Below the pieces are notes generated by a model. It ran no database searches. It was not told the origin of the DNA and saw only the letters and a list, made by a program, of their open reading frames with translations. A stretch of 13,136 nucleotides of DNA from a virus (taxonomy: Duplodnaviria > Heunggongvirae > Uroviricota > Caudoviricetes). The position numbers were made by a program, and so were the translations under genes. Positions 1 to 11,264 of the stretch are shown one piece after another. Location: the IMG/VR virus record IMGVR_UViG_2695420602_000002. One strand, written 5' to 3'. The number at the start of each line of letters is the position of its first letter. Position 1 is the stretch's first letter.

Positions 1-1260
1 ATGAAACTTACCGATCTCACGGTACGAAATGCCAAGCCTGATCAGGTCAACAATAAGATTAAGAAACTGAGCGATGGAAACGGGCTATATCTCGCTGTCT
101 ACCCCAATGGGTCGAAGTACTGGCGCTTTCGTAAAGTGATTAACAGTAAAGAAACAACTCGGGCTTTAGGCATCTACCCGGCCATGACACTGGCAGAGGC
201 CAGAAGTGCCAGAGACTCGTATTTGCTTGAGTTATCCAAAGGGATTGATCCCTTGCACACCATAAAGCCTAAAATAACCTCATTTGAGGAAGTTTCCAGA
301 GAGTGGCATACCAGAAAACGTGGATGGAGTGAACCACACGCTAAAAAAGTCCTCAAAGATTTAGAAAATCATATATTCCCTGAAATAGGCAAAAGAGCAG
401 TTAATGAAATAACAACTCAGGATTTATTAACACCCCTTAGAAAAATGGAGGATAAAGGAATACTGGAAACCGCTTCGCGTATCAAACAACGCATGAATGC
501 GATCATGCGCTATGCTGTACAAAGTGGAATAATTAAATATAACCCAGCACAAGAACTGGATGGCGCTTTAGAAACAAATAAAACAAAACACCGCCCCGCC
601 CTTCCTCTTGAACGCTTACCGGAATTATTAGATAAGATTGAAAATTACCATACTCAGTCACACGGGCGGCTATTAACTCAATTAGCTGTAAGACTTAACC
701 TCTTAATTTTTATTCGCTCCAGTGAACTTCGTTTTGCTCGCTGGAATGAAATAGACCTTGATAAATCTCAGTGGATTATTCCAGCGCAACGAGAAGAAGT
801 TAAAGATGTAAGGTTTTCATACCGTGGTGCAAAAATGAAAACGCCTCATACGGTTCCTCTTGCCACACAAGCAATAGAAACTCTAAAGGCAATAAAGGTA
901 ATTTCAGGTGATGAGATATTTGTTTTCCCCGGCGACCACTATCAATCAAAACCGATGAGTGAGAATACAATAAATAAAGCGTTGCGTAATATGGGATATG
1001 ACACGCAATCAGACGTTTGTGGACATGGTTTCCGCGCTATGGCCTGTGCAGCCCTCACGGAGTCTGGAAAGTGGTCAAGAGAAGCAGTAGAGCGTCAGAT
1101 GAGCCACAAAGAAAGAAACTCCGTCAGGGCTGCATATGTCCATCAAGCCGAACATATGGAAGAACGACGCCTGATGTTGCAATGGTGGGGAGACTATCTT
1201 GAGGCCTGCCAAACAGCTTATATTCCACCTTATAAATTTGAATGGTCTTCGAAAAAATGA
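1..1260 (+). CDS. int: P4-type tyrosine integrase (site-specific recombinase, phage integrase family), 419 aa
   Basis: Full-length ORF from the track. N-terminus (MKLTDLTVRNAKP...DGNGLYL) and C-terminal motifs (GHGFRA, HMEERRLMLQWW) match the P4/CP4-type integrase family as recalled. Position next to a tRNA-type att is typical. Confidence 0.9.
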   Translation: MKLTDLTVRNAKPDQVNNKIKKLSDGNGLYLAVYPNGSKYWRFRKVINSKETTRALGIYPAMTLAEARSARDSYLLELSKGIDPLHTIKPKITSFEEVSREWHTRKRGWSEPHAKKVLKDLENHIFPEIGKRAVNEITTQDLLTPLRKMEDKGILETASRIKQRMNAIMRYAVQSGIIKYNPAQELDGALETNKTKHRPALPLERLPELLDKIENYHTQSHGRLLTQLAVRLNLLIFIRSSELRFARWNEIDLDKSQWIIPAQREEVKDVRFSYRGAKMKTPHTVPLATQAIETLKAIKVISGDEIFVFPGDHYQSKPMSENTINKALRNMGYDTQSDVCGHGFRAMACAALTESGKWSREAVERQMSHKERNSVRAAYVHQAEHMEERRLMLQWWGDYLEACQTAYIPPYKFEWSSKK

Positions 1261-1350: not shown

Positions 1351-1792
1351 ATTAAATAACTTATTGATTTTATTATACAAATCAACCCTTATTCCATTTT
1401 GGAATTAGTGATATTAGTTTCATTCAAAATTTAGCACTAATTTATTGACGAACATCACATTTATAAAGAAAATCTTTATGTTTCCACTTCAATCAGTAGA
1501 CACCTCACCGTTAAATAGAATGACTTTACGATCTACAATAATACACTACCAATCACTATGATATTTTCAAACCGCTTCTAACCGCTTAGAGCTGCTTATA
1601 TTGGTTTGGATTGGGTTCCGAAATTCGATTCATATGAGGACTGAAAAGTCAAATCACATCAATAAGCACCAATTTTACAAAACATCTTACCTTTGATTAT
1701 GATTTCCCTGTCCCGTAAGCCACCGTAAGATCTCATATGATCCACGTTGGGTTGCAAAAAAATGAACGAGCAATATTGTATAGGTGGCTCTT

Positions 1793-2014
1793 ATGTCATT
1801 ACCAACATCATCTAATGAATATAAAACACAGAAACTTATTAGACTTCCAAAGGTTATTGAAATAACTGGAAAGTCAAGAACACGTATTTATGAAGATATG
1901 AAAGCTAACCGCTTCCCTAAAGCAATTAAAACAGGGTCACGTTCAGTCGCCTGGGTTGAACAAGAAATTGCTGAATGGATAGAGGATAAGAAGAAGCAAC
2001 GATTTCAAAACTGA
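1793..2014 (+). CDS. alpA: AlpA-family (prophage CP4-57 regulatory protein-like) HTH transcriptional regulator / excision activator, 73 aa
   Basis: Core LIRLPKVIEITGKSRTRIYEDM...SVAWVEQEIAEWIE closely parallels E. coli AlpA (ILRLPAVIQKTGMARATIYDWL...SVGWIEAEIDEWL, recalled). ATG at 1793 preferred over the GTG at 1784 because AGGTGG lies 5 nt upstream. Confidence 0.88.
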   Translation: MSLPTSSNEYKTQKLIRLPKVIEITGKSRTRIYEDMKANRFPKAIKTGSRSVAWVEQEIAEWIEDKKKQRFQN

Positions 2015-2070: not shown

Positions 2071-2195
2071 AACTGAGTTAATATCTTAACAGGAATCCAG
2101 CAATGCTTTACTTACCGGAACAACACAATTGTATACGTTTTCTTCTGGCGCTTAAAGCGTTTGACAACAGAAGAAAAAATATTCACCGCAGCCTA

Positions 2196-2225
2196 TTGAC
2201 GTCCCACAATGTACTGTCGTATCGT
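2196..2225 (+). promoter_or_regulatory. Candidate sigma70 promoter (TTGACG-N18-TATCGT) driving the leader / small RNA
   Basis: -35 TTGACG at 2196-2201 and -10 TATCGT at 2220-2225, read from sequence. The 18-nt spacer is one longer than optimal. Confidence 0.3.
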
Positions 2226-2231
2226 TTAAGC

Positions 2232-2310
2232 GTTGCCCCTCAATGGGCAATCGGGCGTGGAAACCCGTATCAGTACAAGGCGACATCAGACGCCGATTGC
2301 GTCTTTTTTA
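2232..2310 (+). ncRNA. Candidate small structured RNA / attenuator leader ending in an intrinsic terminator (possible analogue of the P4 immunity CI RNA region)
   Basis: Hairpin TTGCCC-ctcaat-GGGCAA (2233-2250), hairpin CGGG/CCCG (2252-2267), then a terminator hairpin. Lies between alpA and the early operon. No convincing protein in this stretch. Confidence 0.3.
2288..2310 (+). terminator. Rho-independent terminator (AGACGC-cgatt-GCGTCT followed by TTTTTT)
   Basis: Perfect 6-bp GC-rich stem, 5-nt loop and T6 tract read directly. It lies inside the 199-aa track ORF 2103..2702, arguing against that ORF being one gene. Confidence 0.55.
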
Positions 2311-2504
2311 TTGTCGTTAAATCAGTGCCACCATATTCAGCGGAGCAGATCCGCGCAGTATCAATGGTGGCTCTGGCAGGGCAGCTTTCGGGCTGGCCGG
2401 TCTCCTTGTACGCCGGTATTTCCACCCCTGTCAGTGTCACCACCAATCATGAGCGTGGAAACTCCGGTGGTGACTCCTTAATTAAGTACAAGGAGATCAT
2501 CATT

Positions 2505-2702
2505 ATGATGACAACCCCTGCCCCATTGCATCCCCAATTTGTTTGGCTTTTTCTCGCTGTGCGCCGTTCTGACGTGTCCGCACGTCCACACCGTGAAGAA
2601 GTCACCGCCTCAACCTATCAGGCCGCACGCCGCGTTATAGCGCGTGAATTTATCGCCTCTTTTGCCGGTCGTCTGCCGGTTCGCGAGGTGGCCCATGTTT
2701 AA
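2505..2702 (+). CDS. Hypothetical small protein, 65 aa (early operon gene 1)
   Basis: ATG at 2505 preceded by AAGGAG with a 9-nt spacer. C-terminus ...REVAHV is shared with the next gene. Stop overlaps the next start in ATGTTTAA. Confidence 0.5.
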   Translation: MMTTPAPLHPQFVWLFLAVRRSDVSARPHREEVTASTYQAARRVIAREFIASFAGRLPVREVAHV

Positions 2703-3623: not shown

Positions 3624-3887
3624 ATGACAACAAGTAATCATATTCAGAGTGTTAATCCGTCTCACCTCAGTATTGAGAATTATCACAAACTGAATCGCGC
3701 GAGGAATGTCGCATTTCAGATGCATTTACATATTCGCCAGTGTGAAGCTAACGCGATGCCACTCTTATGGATACCGGATATTTTCAGTTATATCAGTGAA
3801 GATATTTCATCAGTACTACAGGAAGTTAAACGCCTGGGGATTTGTGACAAATATCTGGGACATGCTGTACAAGAAGACAAAGAGTGA
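3624..3887 (+). CDS. Hypothetical protein, 87 aa, immediately upstream of the primase (position analogous to P4 epsilon/orf151; function unknown)
   Basis: ATG at 3624 with AAGAGGA 7 nt upstream. The alternative-frame ORF 3706..3903 lacks an RBS. Confidence 0.55.
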   Translation: MTTSNHIQSVNPSHLSIENYHKLNRARNVAFQMHLHIRQCEANAMPLLWIPDIFSYISEDISSVLQEVKRLGICDKYLGHAVQEDKE

Positions 3888-6611: not shown

Positions 6612-7592
6612 ATGACCATTAAAAAACGGGCTGACGGGCGTTATGAAGTCGATATTTATGCCAGAGGGCGCAGCGGTAAGCGCTTTCGCAGGATTTTTGA
6701 CAGAAAGCAGGAGGCAGCGCTCTTTGAACGGTATGTTATGGCGAATGCCGATAAAAAAGAGTGGTTGGGCGCCAGCACCGATCGGCGTACTCTCAGCGAG
6801 CTGCTAAACATCTGGTGGCTGCTGTATGGCCGGACGCTGGAGAACGGAAACGCCGAAAAACGACACCTAGATAAAACGATCAGAGCCCTGGGCAACCCGG
6901 CAGTTAACCGGCTGACTAAACGAATCATCGCGCAGCATCGCAGCGAGCGGCTGGATTCAGGGATCAGCACGGCCACCGTCAACCGTGATATATATCGCCT
7001 TTCGGGTATGTTCAGCGCCCTGATAAAACTGGATGAATTCAAGGCTGATAACCCCTGTAAAGGGCTGGAGCCATTGAGGGAGAAACCAGCAGCAATGACC
7101 TACCTTACTAAATCGGAAATCAGTCGATTATTGAATACCCTTACAGGTGACGATCGCCGTGTTGCTCTTTTGTGCCTCAGCACCGGCGCACGCTGGGGAG
7201 AAGGCAGCACACTGCGGGGAGAGCAGATTAACCACGGACGCGTAACTTTTCTTAAAACCAAAAACGGGAAGAGGCGCACGATCCCAATATCGGATGAACT
7301 GGAAAAAGAGATCAAAACCCGCGATTGCGGGCCGCTGTTCAGCGTTGACTATGAAGCCTTTTGCGGGCGGCTTAGGGAGGTTAAGCCGGACCTGCCGCGC
7401 GGGCAGGCTACGCATGTGCTTCGCCATACGTTTGCAAGCTGGTTCATGATGAACGGGGGCAATATTATCGCCTTACAACAAATTCTTGGTCACGCCAGTA
7501 TCCAGCAGACGATGGTTTATGCGCATGTTGCGCCTGACTATCTGCAACACGCCGTTTCACTCAATCCCCTTTCTGGCGGAATCAGCCTCTGA
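6612..7592 (+). CDS. Second tyrosine recombinase / integrase-family protein with an arm-type N-terminal domain, 326 aa
   Basis: C-terminal catalytic signature HVLRHTFAS ... LGHASIQQTMVYAHV (R, H-x-x-R, H, Y). GAGGAA RBS upstream. Starts 16 bp after the primase stop on the same strand. Confidence 0.78.
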   Translation: MTIKKRADGRYEVDIYARGRSGKRFRRIFDRKQEAALFERYVMANADKKEWLGASTDRRTLSELLNIWWLLYGRTLENGNAEKRHLDKTIRALGNPAVNRLTKRIIAQHRSERLDSGISTATVNRDIYRLSGMFSALIKLDEFKADNPCKGLEPLREKPAAMTYLTKSEISRLLNTLTGDDRRVALLCLSTGARWGEGSTLRGEQINHGRVTFLKTKNGKRRTIPISDELEKEIKTRDCGPLFSVDYEAFCGRLREVKPDLPRGQATHVLRHTFASWFMMNGGNIIALQQILGHASIQQTMVYAHVAPDYLQHAVSLNPLSGGISL

Positions 7593-9149: not shown

Positions 9150-9887
9150 ATGACACAAAACAACATGCAGGCATTACTCGTGAGTTACCAGCAGCAGAAA
9201 GAGCTATTTGACCGTGCCTATAAGTCTCTTTCAGACGAAGAGAAGGTGCTTGCCAACCTGAGCGAGACAAAGCGAAAAATAGAAGTGGAGTCAAACGCGG
9301 GCCATAGTGCCGGTGACTGGGGGCTTGCGTTGCTCAGGAACGGAGGCGTTGAAAGTGCGGAAACAGATGGTGCGGCACTGTCCGCAGCGCAGGTGATGGT
9401 AAAGCTTCAAAAAATCCAGGAGTTGATTGAATCCCAGAGCCTGACGGTGCTTGATCTACGGATTCAAACCGCAAGCCAGGCACGCCAGACGAAAGAGGCT
9501 TATTTTAAACTTTCGTCAGTGATTGCGGATTCTTTTCTCCAGTCTCTTAAAGACGACCTCAGAGCGCTGGTTGGTGAGCGATTGTCTGTCGTCATTGGGC
9601 TTTATTCTCTGGCAGGATTAAACACCAGTGATGCAGAAAGAATATTATCAGATGAATTTATGAAGTTACTTCGCGTTGACTCCAGAACGGTTGTACGTGA
9701 ATTATTGAGTGATGCTGACAGTAGTCTTTTCAGCGATCCTGTACTGGCATTTTTCCCCGGTGCATTGTCTGGCAGTATTAACCATGCGTTAAATAACAGT
9801 CCTTCGCCAATTCAGGAATCTAAAGCACGCTCTGATATGGATTATAAGAAGAGACTGGCGGCGGGTATTGAGCCATTCAGAAAATAG
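9150..9887 (+). CDS. Hypothetical coiled-coil-rich protein, 245 aa; possibly a Sid/Psu-like or scaffold-like capsid-associated protein (positional inference only)
   Basis: Good ORF with a Q/E/K/L-rich helical composition. Immediately upstream of the capsid-like gene and Ogr. Length similar to P4 Sid (244 aa, recalled), but no sequence match could be verified. Confidence 0.65.
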   Translation: MTQNNMQALLVSYQQQKELFDRAYKSLSDEEKVLANLSETKRKIEVESNAGHSAGDWGLALLRNGGVESAETDGAALSAAQVMVKLQKIQELIESQSLTVLDLRIQTASQARQTKEAYFKLSSVIADSFLQSLKDDLRALVGERLSVVIGLYSLAGLNTSDAERILSDEFMKLLRVDSRTVVRELLSDADSSLFSDPVLAFFPGALSGSINHALNNSPSPIQESKARSDMDYKKRLAAGIEPFRK

Positions 9888-9924: not shown

Positions 9925-10962
9925 ATGAAAAACAGCACCAGAGAAAAATATGATGCATGGTGCTTATTGCAGGCATCACAAAATAAGCTGAACAGTTCAA
10001 AGCTGGATGGGATTTCCTTTTCACTTACACCATCTGCATCGCAAACTATTGTTGATAAGATGCAGGAAAGCGCAGATTTACTTAAACAGATAAATATTCT
10101 GGAAGTGGACGAGCAGGAAGAAGAGTCGATCGGGCTTACATCTGTACCGCTGTCCAGTACGAACAACTCAACGACAGAGGCACGCCAGCCCGTACAAGGT
10201 TGTACAGCAGAGACTGACCGATACCGTTGTGAGCAGGTGAATACTGATACCTATGTTTCTTATGAGAAACTGGATCAGTGGGCGGGCCTTGATAATTTCT
10301 TCGGGCATATGGAGAGCCAGATTTATCGCCGTCAGGCACTGGATGTAATACTGACTGGCATTTATGGCACTCACCATGCGGCTAAATCAGATATTACTGC
10401 TAACCCGTTGCTTCAGGATGTTAATACCGGCTGGTTAGAAAAGTGGCGGCGAAATGCCTCAGCCCGCGTGGTTAATGGTGTATCGGTCAGTCGCCGCAAT
10501 AACGCCAATATTATCGAGTCCAGCGGGGATTACGGTACTATTGACTCTCTGACGATGGAGGCATATCAGGAATTATTAGATCCGTGGCACACCGGGGATT
10601 CAGATCTTGTTGTTATTTGTAATCTCTCATTGATTACAGGAAAGTATTATCCCTTTGTTAATAATCTTGGAGTGACACCAAATAAAGAGTTGCTCGCTTT
10701 AGCATTACAAAATGAGAACCGTCAGATCGGAGGGCTTCCCGTTTGCCCAATTCCGTTCTTTCCTCAAAATGCGATGCTGGTTACTTCGCTTGATAATCTG
10801 TCTTTGTACTGGCAAACAGGAACACACCGCCGCAAAATCTCGGAAGAACCGGAATTTAACCGCGTCTCAACCTATGATTCGTGGAATAACGCCTATGTGG
10901 TCGAAGACTACGGCAAGGGATGCCTGATTGAAGGGATTATCTGGGGTAACGATCAGCGTTAA
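9925..10962 (+). CDS. P2 gpN-family major capsid protein homolog, 345 aa
   Basis: Segments match gpN as recalled from memory: SQTIVDKMQESADLLKQINI (gpN TQTLMNTMQESSDFLTRINI), YRCEQVNTDTYVSYEKLDQWA (gpN YECDQINFDFYIRYKTLDLWA), LLQDVNTGWLEKWR, GDSDLVVI, HRRKISEEPEFNRV...YVVEDYGKGCLIE. The function needs a search to confirm. Confidence 0.6.
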   Translation: MKNSTREKYDAWCLLQASQNKLNSSKLDGISFSLTPSASQTIVDKMQESADLLKQINILEVDEQEEESIGLTSVPLSSTNNSTTEARQPVQGCTAETDRYRCEQVNTDTYVSYEKLDQWAGLDNFFGHMESQIYRRQALDVILTGIYGTHHAAKSDITANPLLQDVNTGWLEKWRRNASARVVNGVSVSRRNNANIIESSGDYGTIDSLTMEAYQELLDPWHTGDSDLVVICNLSLITGKYYPFVNNLGVTPNKELLALALQNENRQIGGLPVCPIPFFPQNAMLVTSLDNLSLYWQTGTHRRKISEEPEFNRVSTYDSWNNAYVVEDYGKGCLIEGIIWGNDQR

Positions 10963-11030: not shown

Positions 11031-11264
11031 ATGGCTATGCGTTGCCCTCAATGCCATGCAACGGCGAAGACAAGAACCAGCGTTGAACTCAGCGACCTGG
11101 TAAGAAAAAGCTATCATCAGTGCCAGAACCTTAAGTGTGGCCTGACGTTTATCTCTATGACAGAGATTTACTGCACGCTTAACCGTCCCGATTTGCCATC
11201 ACATACCCTTGAAGCCCTTCCACCGGACAAGTTCCCGATCAGCCACCAGGAAAAAACGCTGTAA
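11031..11264 (+). CDS. ogr: Ogr/Delta-family zinc-finger late-gene transcriptional activator, 77 aa
   Basis: C5-x2-C8-x22-C31-x4-C36 spacing with the SYHQCQNLKCGLTF motif (P2 Ogr RYHQCQNVNCSATF, recalled). RBS GAGGAGAAG upstream. Confidence 0.85.
   Translation: MAMRCPQCHATAKTRTSVELSDLVRKSYHQCQNLKCGLTFISMTEIYCTLNRPDLPSHTLEALPPDKFPISHQEKTL

Follow-up and report, generated by a model that had tools for sequence, protein, structure and literature searches.

In phage P4 the immunity determinants eta, kil, CI and seqA have been described, CI is an RNA overlapped by eta, and the constitutive promoter lies "internal to eta" (PMC10111431). Both the CI RNA and the C4 RNA serve as substrates of RNase P (PMC5499578; PMC11143913), and c4 blocks translation around the ribosome-binding site (RBS) (PMC12197685). 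The literature equates isrK with P4 seqA and C4 with P4 CI (PMC10111431; PMC4825925), and the Rfam profiles C4 and isrK detect relatives of CI and seqA (PMC10111431). IsrK from the Salmonella prophage Gifsy-1 is a structural homologue of the P4 seqA RNA; it binds Hfq and has the read-through form of its own transcript as its target in trans, and this form and a processed downstream RNA have been described (PMC4825925). Here we study a stretch of 13,136 nucleotides (nt) from a Caudoviricetes virus record (IMG/VR IMGVR_UViG_2695420602_000002), which as a whole is called the window in the following, and within it the cassette located between an alpA gene and the early genes. The window is 100% identical to a part of the chromosome of Escherichia coli KCJ3K291 (NZ_CP054407.1). 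We regard it as very likely that the cassette controls the immunity of a P4-like satellite prophage of 11.6 kb, which is integrated at a tRNA-Arg gene in this strain, and in all probability it is part for part homologous to the promoter-seqA-cI-seqC-kil/eta region of P4. Our analysis covers the RNA family membership, the folds, the complementarity and covariation of loops and targets, the conservation of promoter and terminator, the identity of the Icd/kil gene and the open eta frame; what we say about RNA processing, Rho termination, the direction of regulation and override by translation follows the work on P4, P1 and Gifsy-1 by analogy.

An RNA control region like that of P4 immunity had been suggested for this place from the letters of the sequence, together with a search using covariance models of the C4/P4 CI-type families of Rfam. 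This search was positive for two families, both above their gathering scores and both over the full length of the model: C4 (RF01695) with 79 bits (gathering score 45, E 1.6e-14, model positions 1-87 of 87) and isrK (RF01394) with 57 bits (gathering score 50, model positions 1-77 of 77). P4 itself gives the same two matches in the same order, first an isrK-type match of 60.8 bits and then a C4-type match of 74.9 bits which is the CI RNA, followed by the kil/Icd-like gene. Order and spacing of constitutive promoter, seqA, CI RNA, seqC and nested kil/eta are the same in P4 and in the window. The region as a whole is placed, as in P4, between alpA/vis on one side and an epsilon-like gene and a primase gene on the other, with the difference that the primase gives no match to P4 alpha. 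A third family, c4-a1b1 (RF03163), stays below its gathering score (31.7 bits versus 46.7, E 5e-6) at 2219-2271, DNA that is also covered by the isrK match; in P4 (44.1 bits) and in APSE-7 (45.8 bits) this family is likewise just under the threshold.

For the comparison with related loci one genome per species was scanned with an Icd/kil alignment, which resulted in 80 loci from Enterobacterales. The statistics on loops and targets use a sample of 83 loci, those on folds 82 sequences and those on the promoter 79 homologues. All 79 loci with enough flanking sequence share a common layout, in which isrK (about 78 nt) is separated by 50-107 nt from C4 (about 88 nt) and the ATG follows after another 51-57 nt. 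The spacer between isrK and C4 has 50 nt in the window and 107 nt in P4.

The C4 RNA of the window has a minimum free energy of -40.9 kcal/mol (z -4.31), and none of 200 shuffled sequences folds as well. Its minimum-free-energy fold is the family consensus, a closing stem with two hairpins (Table 1), and directly 3' of the closing stem a CCA is found at 2443-2445. In an independent MAFFT alignment of the 82 sequences 99.9% of the cells show standard pairs in this fold, with nine compensatory pairs. The whole leader (2232-2520) also folds far better than shuffled sequence (z -4.8). The isrK RNA begins with two hairpins, which a single-stranded linker connects to a Rho-independent terminator. 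Both hairpins and the terminator had been noticed before, and together they make up the full-length isrK match. Standard pairs are present in 95.7% of the cells of the isrK fold, with seven compensatory pairs, values which are not reached by any of 500 shuffles. The terminator helix is paired in 99.6% of cells across the relatives, including a compensatory swap from G-C to C-G, and stem and T run are essentially invariant.

The promoter which had been proposed at 2196-2225 is also present. The TTG of its -35 element as well as A2 and T6 of its -10 element are invariant in all 79 homologous sequences, and the same holds for the 18-nt spacer and for the distance of 6 nt between the -10 element and hairpin 1, while the surrounding sequence diverges. 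This pattern of invariant positions at a fixed spacing fits a real promoter. The transcription start would lie near 2232, which is also where the Rfam isrK model begins, and the promoter is the likely counterpart of the constitutive promoter internal to eta of P4, named PLE in the P4 papers.

A link between the RNAs and the early genes is given by two single-stranded elements of C4, the loop b' of hairpin 2 and the junction a', each of which has one possible target upstream in isrK (b1, a1) and one downstream in front of the kil gene (b2, a2). The complementarity of b' (UCUCCUUGUAC) to b2 (GUACAAGGAGA) is perfect over 11 of 11 nt (duplex -22.9 kcal/mol), and b2 holds the Shine-Dalgarno sequence AAGGAG, which is placed 9 nt 5' of the ATG at 2505. 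The upstream site b1 repeats b2, with GGCG in place of the Shine-Dalgarno GGAG; with b' it is complementary over 8 nt at 2273-2280 and to 92% over 2273-2284 (duplex -17.4 kcal/mol). The junction a' pairs with a1 in the loop of isrK hairpin 2 (-18.9 kcal/mol) and, at 2455-2461, with a2 (-17.5 kcal/mol), which itself is an exact 10-nt direct repeat of 2255-2264. For the C4 core and the complete downstream target (2448-2510) an interaction of -38.8 kcal/mol is predicted, whereas heterologous C4 cores reach -26.3 kcal/mol at best, with a median of -21 and -18.5 kcal/mol for P4 CI. Beyond a1, b1, a2 and b2 no further C4 target sites above chance were found in the window. One copy of b2 with a single mismatch (GTACAAGAAGA) is located at 3867-3877, at the end of the epsilon-like gene and 50 nt before the start codon of the primase gene; with six b2-like sites found at up to two mismatches against 2.5 expected, this copy is within the chance expectation.

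Table 1. Positions of the features discussed in the text, numbered from the first letter of the window. ORF, open reading frame; aa, amino acids.
Feature	Position	Strand	Sequence, model or remark
Integrase	1-1260		
AlpA-family regulator (alpA)	1784-2014		
eta-like long ORF, 199 codons	2103-2702	+	in frame with kil; RefSeq WP_077822653.1
Candidate sigma-70 promoter	2196-2225	+	-35 TTGACG 2196-2201; -10 TATCGT 2220-2225; 18-nt spacer
isrK / P4 seqA-type leader RNA, about 78 nt	2232-2309	+	Rfam RF01394
isrK hairpin 1	2232-2251	+	
isrK hairpin 2	2252-2267	+	
a1, upstream a' target or decoy	2254-2264	+	core GUGGAAA 2257-2263, in loop of isrK hairpin 2
b1, upstream b' target or decoy	2273-2283	+	GUACAAGG then CGA; single-stranded linker of isrK
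Intrinsic terminator	stem 2288-2304, T/U run to 2309	+	terminator scan
Upstream flank able to pair with C4 5' arm	2323-2334 with 2364-2375	+	12-nt arms, 92% complementary
C4 / P4 CI-type antisense RNA	2360-2447	+	Rfam RF01695
C4 closing stem	2365-2381 with 2426-2442	+	
C4 hairpin 1	2382-2395	+	
C4 hairpin 2	2396-2417	+	
b', loop of C4 hairpin 2	2401-2411	+	UCUCCUUGUAC; anti-Shine-Dalgarno sequence
a', single-stranded C4 junction	2418-2428	+	AUUUCCAC then CCC; core UUUCCAC 2419-2425
a2, downstream a' target	2453-2462	+	GCGUGGAAAC
Downstream arm pairing with C4 3' arm	2466-2474 with 2436-2444	+	100% complementary
Local hairpin CUCCUU with AAGGAG	2474-2479 with 2490-2495	+	predicted folds
b2, main b' target	2486-2496	+	GUACAAGGAGA; Shine-Dalgarno AAGGAG 2490-2495
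kil/Icd-like gene, 65 codons, first translated early gene	2505-2702	+	NCBIfam NF033153, 61 bits, aa 12-59
Several small ORFs	between cassette and epsilon-like gene		
P4-epsilon-like "Derepression" protein	3624-3887		PF25738
Toprim primase, 889 aa	3927-6596		

Studying these loops and targets in the relatives reveals that they change together. In the 83 loci we find 32 variants of b' and 15 variants of a', which occur in 50 combinations. At fixed positions the longest Watson-Crick runs between a loop and the targets of its own locus have a mean length of 7.4 nt for b1, 8.5 nt for b2, 7.0 nt for a1 and 6.8 nt for a2, and for loop-target pairs taken across loci the mean is 4.3-4.4 nt. A run of 7 nt between a' and a1 is present at isrK position 23 in 82 of the 83 loci and co-varies with the 15 variants of a'; b1 is found at isrK position 42 in nearly all loci, and a2 offers a 7-nt run, 2-5 nt after the end of C4, in 74 of 83. 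Because the targets co-vary with the loops of their own locus, this is direct covariation evidence for intermolecular pairing, and a' and b' look like a two-part specificity code whose parts recombine freely. The b' of the window is unique in this sample, and four loci share its a'. In P4 the b' loop reads UAUCCUGUGAA instead of UCUCCUUGUAC, and the core of a' is UUCUCAC instead of UUUCCAC. The unique b' together with the much weaker binding predicted for heterologous C4 RNAs points to a distinct immunity specificity in the window. One locus of the sample, from Mangrovibacter yixingensis (L064, 41-328), has a1 and b1 sequences that mismatch the loops of its own C4, and a2 and b2 sequences that match them; this locus seems to have arisen by natural recombination, its specificities upstream and downstream being mismatched.

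The original prediction had listed nested inverted repeats beyond the terminator. These repeats form alternative helices between the arms of C4 and its flanks, and the antisense RNA itself is the conserved three-helix fold at 2360-2447. The helix between the 3' arm of C4 and the downstream flank (GTCACCACC with GGTGGTGAC) was confirmed as described and is paired in 99.1% of cells across the 82 sequences, with five compensatory pairs; it excludes the closing stem of C4 and puts a2 in a loop of its own, and judged from the alignment it is a conserved alternative helix. The upstream repeat (GCCACCAT with ATGGTGGC) exists as well, with arms extended to 12 nt, and is used in predicted folds (z -4.35 for 2318-2380). 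As a conserved element it was rejected, with 73.6% of cells paired in a poorly aligned spacer, and it could be an alternative helix of the precursor that is weakly or only in some lineages conserved. A similar result was obtained for the pairing of TCCTT with the AAGGA of the Shine-Dalgarno sequence. This hairpin is present, appears in the minimum-free-energy folds and could sequester the Shine-Dalgarno sequence in cis, but only 47% of the cells are paired across the 82 relatives; we therefore rejected it as a conserved element and regard it as lineage-specific. Not the local TCCTT but the C4 loop b', with its 11 of 11 matching nt, is the anti-Shine-Dalgarno element that matters. The C4 fold, this 11-nt match, the a and b target pairs and the identity of the Icd/kil gene go beyond what had been noticed before.

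The kil/Icd-like gene directly follows the RNA tandem and is 44% identical to the kil region of P4. Its codon positions 1, 2 and 3 have a substitution entropy of 0.43, 0.35 and 1.07, that is, the excess in the third position. The RNA is rich in C and poor in G at 2472-2636 and at 2697-2786, with a C/G ratio of 1.5-1.9 that rises up to 3.3 further on. This composition is compatible with an early, Rho-dependent stop of transcription ahead of the replication genes, for which the site in P4 is named timm.

The reading which is best supported by these data, and in which we have good confidence, is an RNA immunity mechanism of the P4/P1 type. The constitutive promoter would start transcripts near 2232, many of which would end at the terminator and yield a seqA/IsrK-type RNA of about 78 nt that displays a1 and b1. 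From those transcripts that read through, the CI/C4-type RNA would be cut out, its 5' end presumably by RNase P, for which the CCA behind the closing stem is a circumstantial hint. Its b' and a' would then pair with b2 and a2 just upstream of kil, a pairing with a1 and b1 being possible too. Because b' on b2 covers the Shine-Dalgarno sequence, kil would not be translated, and the untranslated C-rich RNA would be terminated early, probably through the action of Rho, upstream of the genes for the epsilon-like protein and the primase. The element would stay quiescent and be immune to any further element that has its specificity. Transcripts starting further upstream would be the only ones from which the eta-like ORF is translated, and ribosomes crossing the leader in the eta frame would melt the RNA structures and in this way override immunity.

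That this leader can be read as protein at all brings up the question whether the region is purely protein-coding and the RNA matches are by-products. RefSeq annotates 2103-2702 as a single coding sequence for a 199-amino acid "Icd-like" or Ash-family protein, Pfam Phage_ASH (PF10554) scores 98 bits on amino acids 50-146, and the frame is clearly kept open: in 82 distinct leaders the frame in phase with kil has 53 stops versus 199-345 in the other five frames, and in 67 of them it is fully open. Even the non-conserved spacer has no stop in this frame in the 25 clusters carrying the ORF; all 30 spacer clusters together have 6, 15 and 20 stops in the three frames, and all six stops of frame 0 belong to lineages lacking the ORF. 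However, the leader has no codon periodicity (entropy 0.59, 0.585 and 0.523 for positions 1, 2 and 3) and thus no third-position excess like that of kil, and the Icd model NF033153 matches only amino acids 146-193 of the annotated protein. The promoter is located inside the ORF, which starts upstream of it, runs through isrK and C4 and ends as kil; of the 83 loci, 63 have an in-frame ATG upstream of the promoter. The lengths of the leaders differ by numbers that are not multiples of three in 16 of these 83, and 11 loci without the long ORF still keep both RNAs, whose helices and loop-target pairings are backed by covariation. Finally, the CI of P4 is stated to be an RNA overlapped by eta (PMC10111431). 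On the codon-position entropy we rejected the purely protein-coding reading, which is contradicted as an exclusive reading and which we consider very improbable. A protein-coding signal across 2103-2504 had been named beforehand as an argument against RNA control, and the outcome is divided: the frame is conserved open, and a synonymous-site pattern is missing. This outcome agrees with P4 eta, which by its coordinates has 199 codons too, and it leaves the RNA reading standing. An open frame without codon periodicity means that the frame is kept and that the amino acid sequence is not under selection, which in our comparison fits P4 eta. The long ORF is absent from phage D6, APSE-7 and a group from Pectobacterium, Dickeya and Brenneria (L014-L023, L003 and L004 in our sample), where stops occur shortly upstream of the icd ATG and both RNAs are kept; translational override is therefore not universal.

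A different direction of regulation is suggested by Gifsy-1, where the short IsrK pairs with a downstream segment of its read-through transcript and thereby activates the translation of this transcript at least 100-fold (PMC4825925). In the window the short RNA 2232-2309 could accordingly bind in trans, via a1 and b1, either free C4 RNA or the C4-type segment within read-through transcripts, free the RBS and turn on kil and the replication genes, and the cassette would be an activation device first and not an immunity repressor. The required complementarity of a1 and b1 to a' and b' exists (-35.1 kcal/mol), and in the predicted fold of the complete leader a1-a' and b1-b' are paired in cis, both flank helices are used and the Shine-Dalgarno sequence is sequestered, which resembles the translationally inactive "structure A" that has been shown experimentally for the isrK read-through transcript of Gifsy-1 (PMC4825925). 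Nevertheless, b' fits b2 better than b1 (11 versus 8 nt and -22.9 versus -17.4 kcal/mol here, 8.5 versus 7.4 nt across loci), so that C4 should prefer the RBS over the decoy, and for P4, the closest relative by layout, the literature describes seqA as a target that termination requires (PMC10111431; PMC4825925). Such a switch would also be compatible with the immunity model, as the same pairings serve both. We think of the positive switch as possible but rather unlikely, and judge the idea of a device that primarily activates in the same way. It could further be argued that the cassette is an inherited, non-functional relic in a defective island and that its RNAs no longer regulate, given that its exact allele is found in only one of 5,426 complete E. 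coli genomes, the island is mosaic (its primase is of a non-P4 type, and it carries a capsid gene and a second integrase), and the eta start is uncoupled from alpA. Against such decay, both RNAs score above the gathering threshold, b' matches b2 in 11 of 11 nt, the invariant promoter positions and the terminator are intact, and kil, the small ORFs and the primase gene are all open. A relic is therefore improbable in our opinion.

For the P4/P1-type immunity reading itself some observations have to be counted on the negative side. The match of the promoter to the consensus is at chance level when taken alone (9 of 12 matches; one site versus 1.0 expected). On its own the isrK segment does not fold with unusual stability (z -1.3, not significant); isrK is supported by the covariance model and by covariation. 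The eta-like ATG is located 88 nt after the alpA stop (2014) and is uncoupled from it, whereas the two are coupled in P4, and the primase of the window is, as far as its sequence tells, not an orthologue of P4 alpha. Moreover, promoter activity, terminator efficiency, RNA processing and the involvement of Rho are predictions for this element, and the details on P4 follow secondary summaries.

The uncoupling of eta is a difference not only to P4. In P4 and in about 35 other loci the ATG of eta overlaps the alpA stop (ATGA, -4). In the window the two are separated by a stable hairpin at 2038-2070 (-16.7 kcal/mol, z -3.2) with an A run on one side and a U run on the other, which looks like a bidirectional terminator and replaces the coupling. 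The late-promoter motif of the P2 Ogr / P4 Delta type is TGT-N12-ACA. It has two matches in the window, which is chance level, and none of them is upstream of the alpA or the eta start, so no candidate for an override promoter was found with this motif.

P1 and P7 have a comparable arrangement in their immI region (a1 b1, c4, a2 b2, icd, ant), which we examined in the P1-like phage D6. Like the window it has the C4 fold with two flanking target pairs, b2 over the RBS of an Icd-family gene, and an isrK-type hairpin pair with terminator upstream; D6 shares with the window the isrK-C4 tandem and even the local CUCCUU...AAGGAG hairpin, and it is without the long eta-type ORF. In contrast to P1 immI no ant follows in the window, where the operon consists of early and replication genes of a satellite. 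The window's genes downstream of icd/kil are small ORFs of no assigned function, the epsilon-like protein and the primase, and a domain of the Ant, KilA or Bro type was found in none of them. About 470 nt upstream of its main C4, D6 (L003, 1026-1105) shows a second, weaker C4-like match of 40.2 bits, below the gathering score of 45. The isrK locus of Gifsy-1 (IsrK, STnc1160/"orf45", anrP) belongs to the same Rfam isrK family as that of the window and has several features that are predicted for the window as well: a single promoter for a short terminated and a read-through RNA, a processed RNA further downstream that is complementary to IsrK, and an RBS sequestered in the read-through form (PMC4825925). 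Its cargo is different, an antirepressor through which AntQ is expressed and the prophage induced, and its short RNA was shown to activate, whereas the direction of regulation in the window is deduced by analogy. The isrK-C4 tandem is also present in APSE-7, for which the public annotation (LR794147.1) gives both non-coding RNAs next to each other, with a' and b' upstream of the regulated gene, but this gene encodes a BRO-family protein, and neither an Icd/kil gene nor an eta-type ORF is present.

In total 2,809 of the 5,426 complete E. coli genomes harbour homologous cassettes, on chromosomes and on plasmids. The system is well known and very common, and what the window adds is a new specificity with a previously unstudied allele. 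No new principle is involved, as RNA immunity in P4, P1 and Gifsy-1 is textbook-level knowledge for specialists, and the value is mainly in annotation and in the typing of mobile elements. RefSeq describes the region as one 199-amino acid "Icd-like" protein and no non-coding RNA, and all 25 of the 25 matches listed are annotated as protein (ash, Icd-like or Rha), none as non-coding RNA. The correct gene model consists of the promoter, the seqA/IsrK RNA, the CI/C4 RNA and a short kil gene. The matches to Phage_ASH and to PHROG 6928 ("transcriptional repressor") coincide exactly with the translated RNA genes, and the long RefSeq entries named "ash family protein" or "Icd-like protein" correspond, like these two families, to translated isrK and C4 genes (2103-2541 in the window). 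We suggest tentatively, and with somewhat less than even confidence, that the first approximately 134 codons of eta may encode no functional domain, their frame being open only for the ribosome read-through that melts both RNAs, that Phage_ASH would represent translated RNA genes, and that a' and b' would form a freely recombining code. The two loops would be a readable immunity specificity, from which mutual exclusion or de-repression of satellites and prophages could be predicted. If this is true, the a'/b' code could serve to predict cross-immunity between satellites, P1-like plasmids and lambdoid prophages, elements that together are found in about half of the E. coli genomes.

In NZ_CP054407.1 the window is held by an island of about 11.6 kb that is bounded by the tRNA-Arg gene and intS. 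Its gene order (int, alpA, cassette, small ORFs, epsilon-like gene, primase gene) matches that of P4, where orf88/vis, the "cI" region, epsilon, orf151, orf106 and alpha follow each other. P4 alpha gives no match to the primase of the window at E<=1e-5; the best phage matches of this primase are to Escherichia phage ESSI2_ev239 (56%) and to Ralstonia and Pseudomonas phages (about 48%). As this primase is not orthologous to alpha, the element resembles P4 in its layout and is not a close relative of it, and judged from its genes the island is mosaic in content. Directly 3' of the primase gene a second tyrosine-integrase-like gene (6612-7592, 326 amino acids, Int_N and Phage_integrase) is located, followed at some distance by an ORF of 245 amino acids with no assigned identity (9150-9887), a P2-family major capsid protein gene (9925-10962; TIGR01551 with 236 bits, phrog_70) and a gene for an ogr/Delta-like zinc-finger protein (11031-11264). 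The satellite seems to have a P2-type capsid gene of its own, which distinguishes it from P4, as P4 itself is not known to carry a capsid gene. In a distant search a second match to the cassette was found elsewhere in the same chromosome, and for this reason the strain probably carries another C4-type immunity module.

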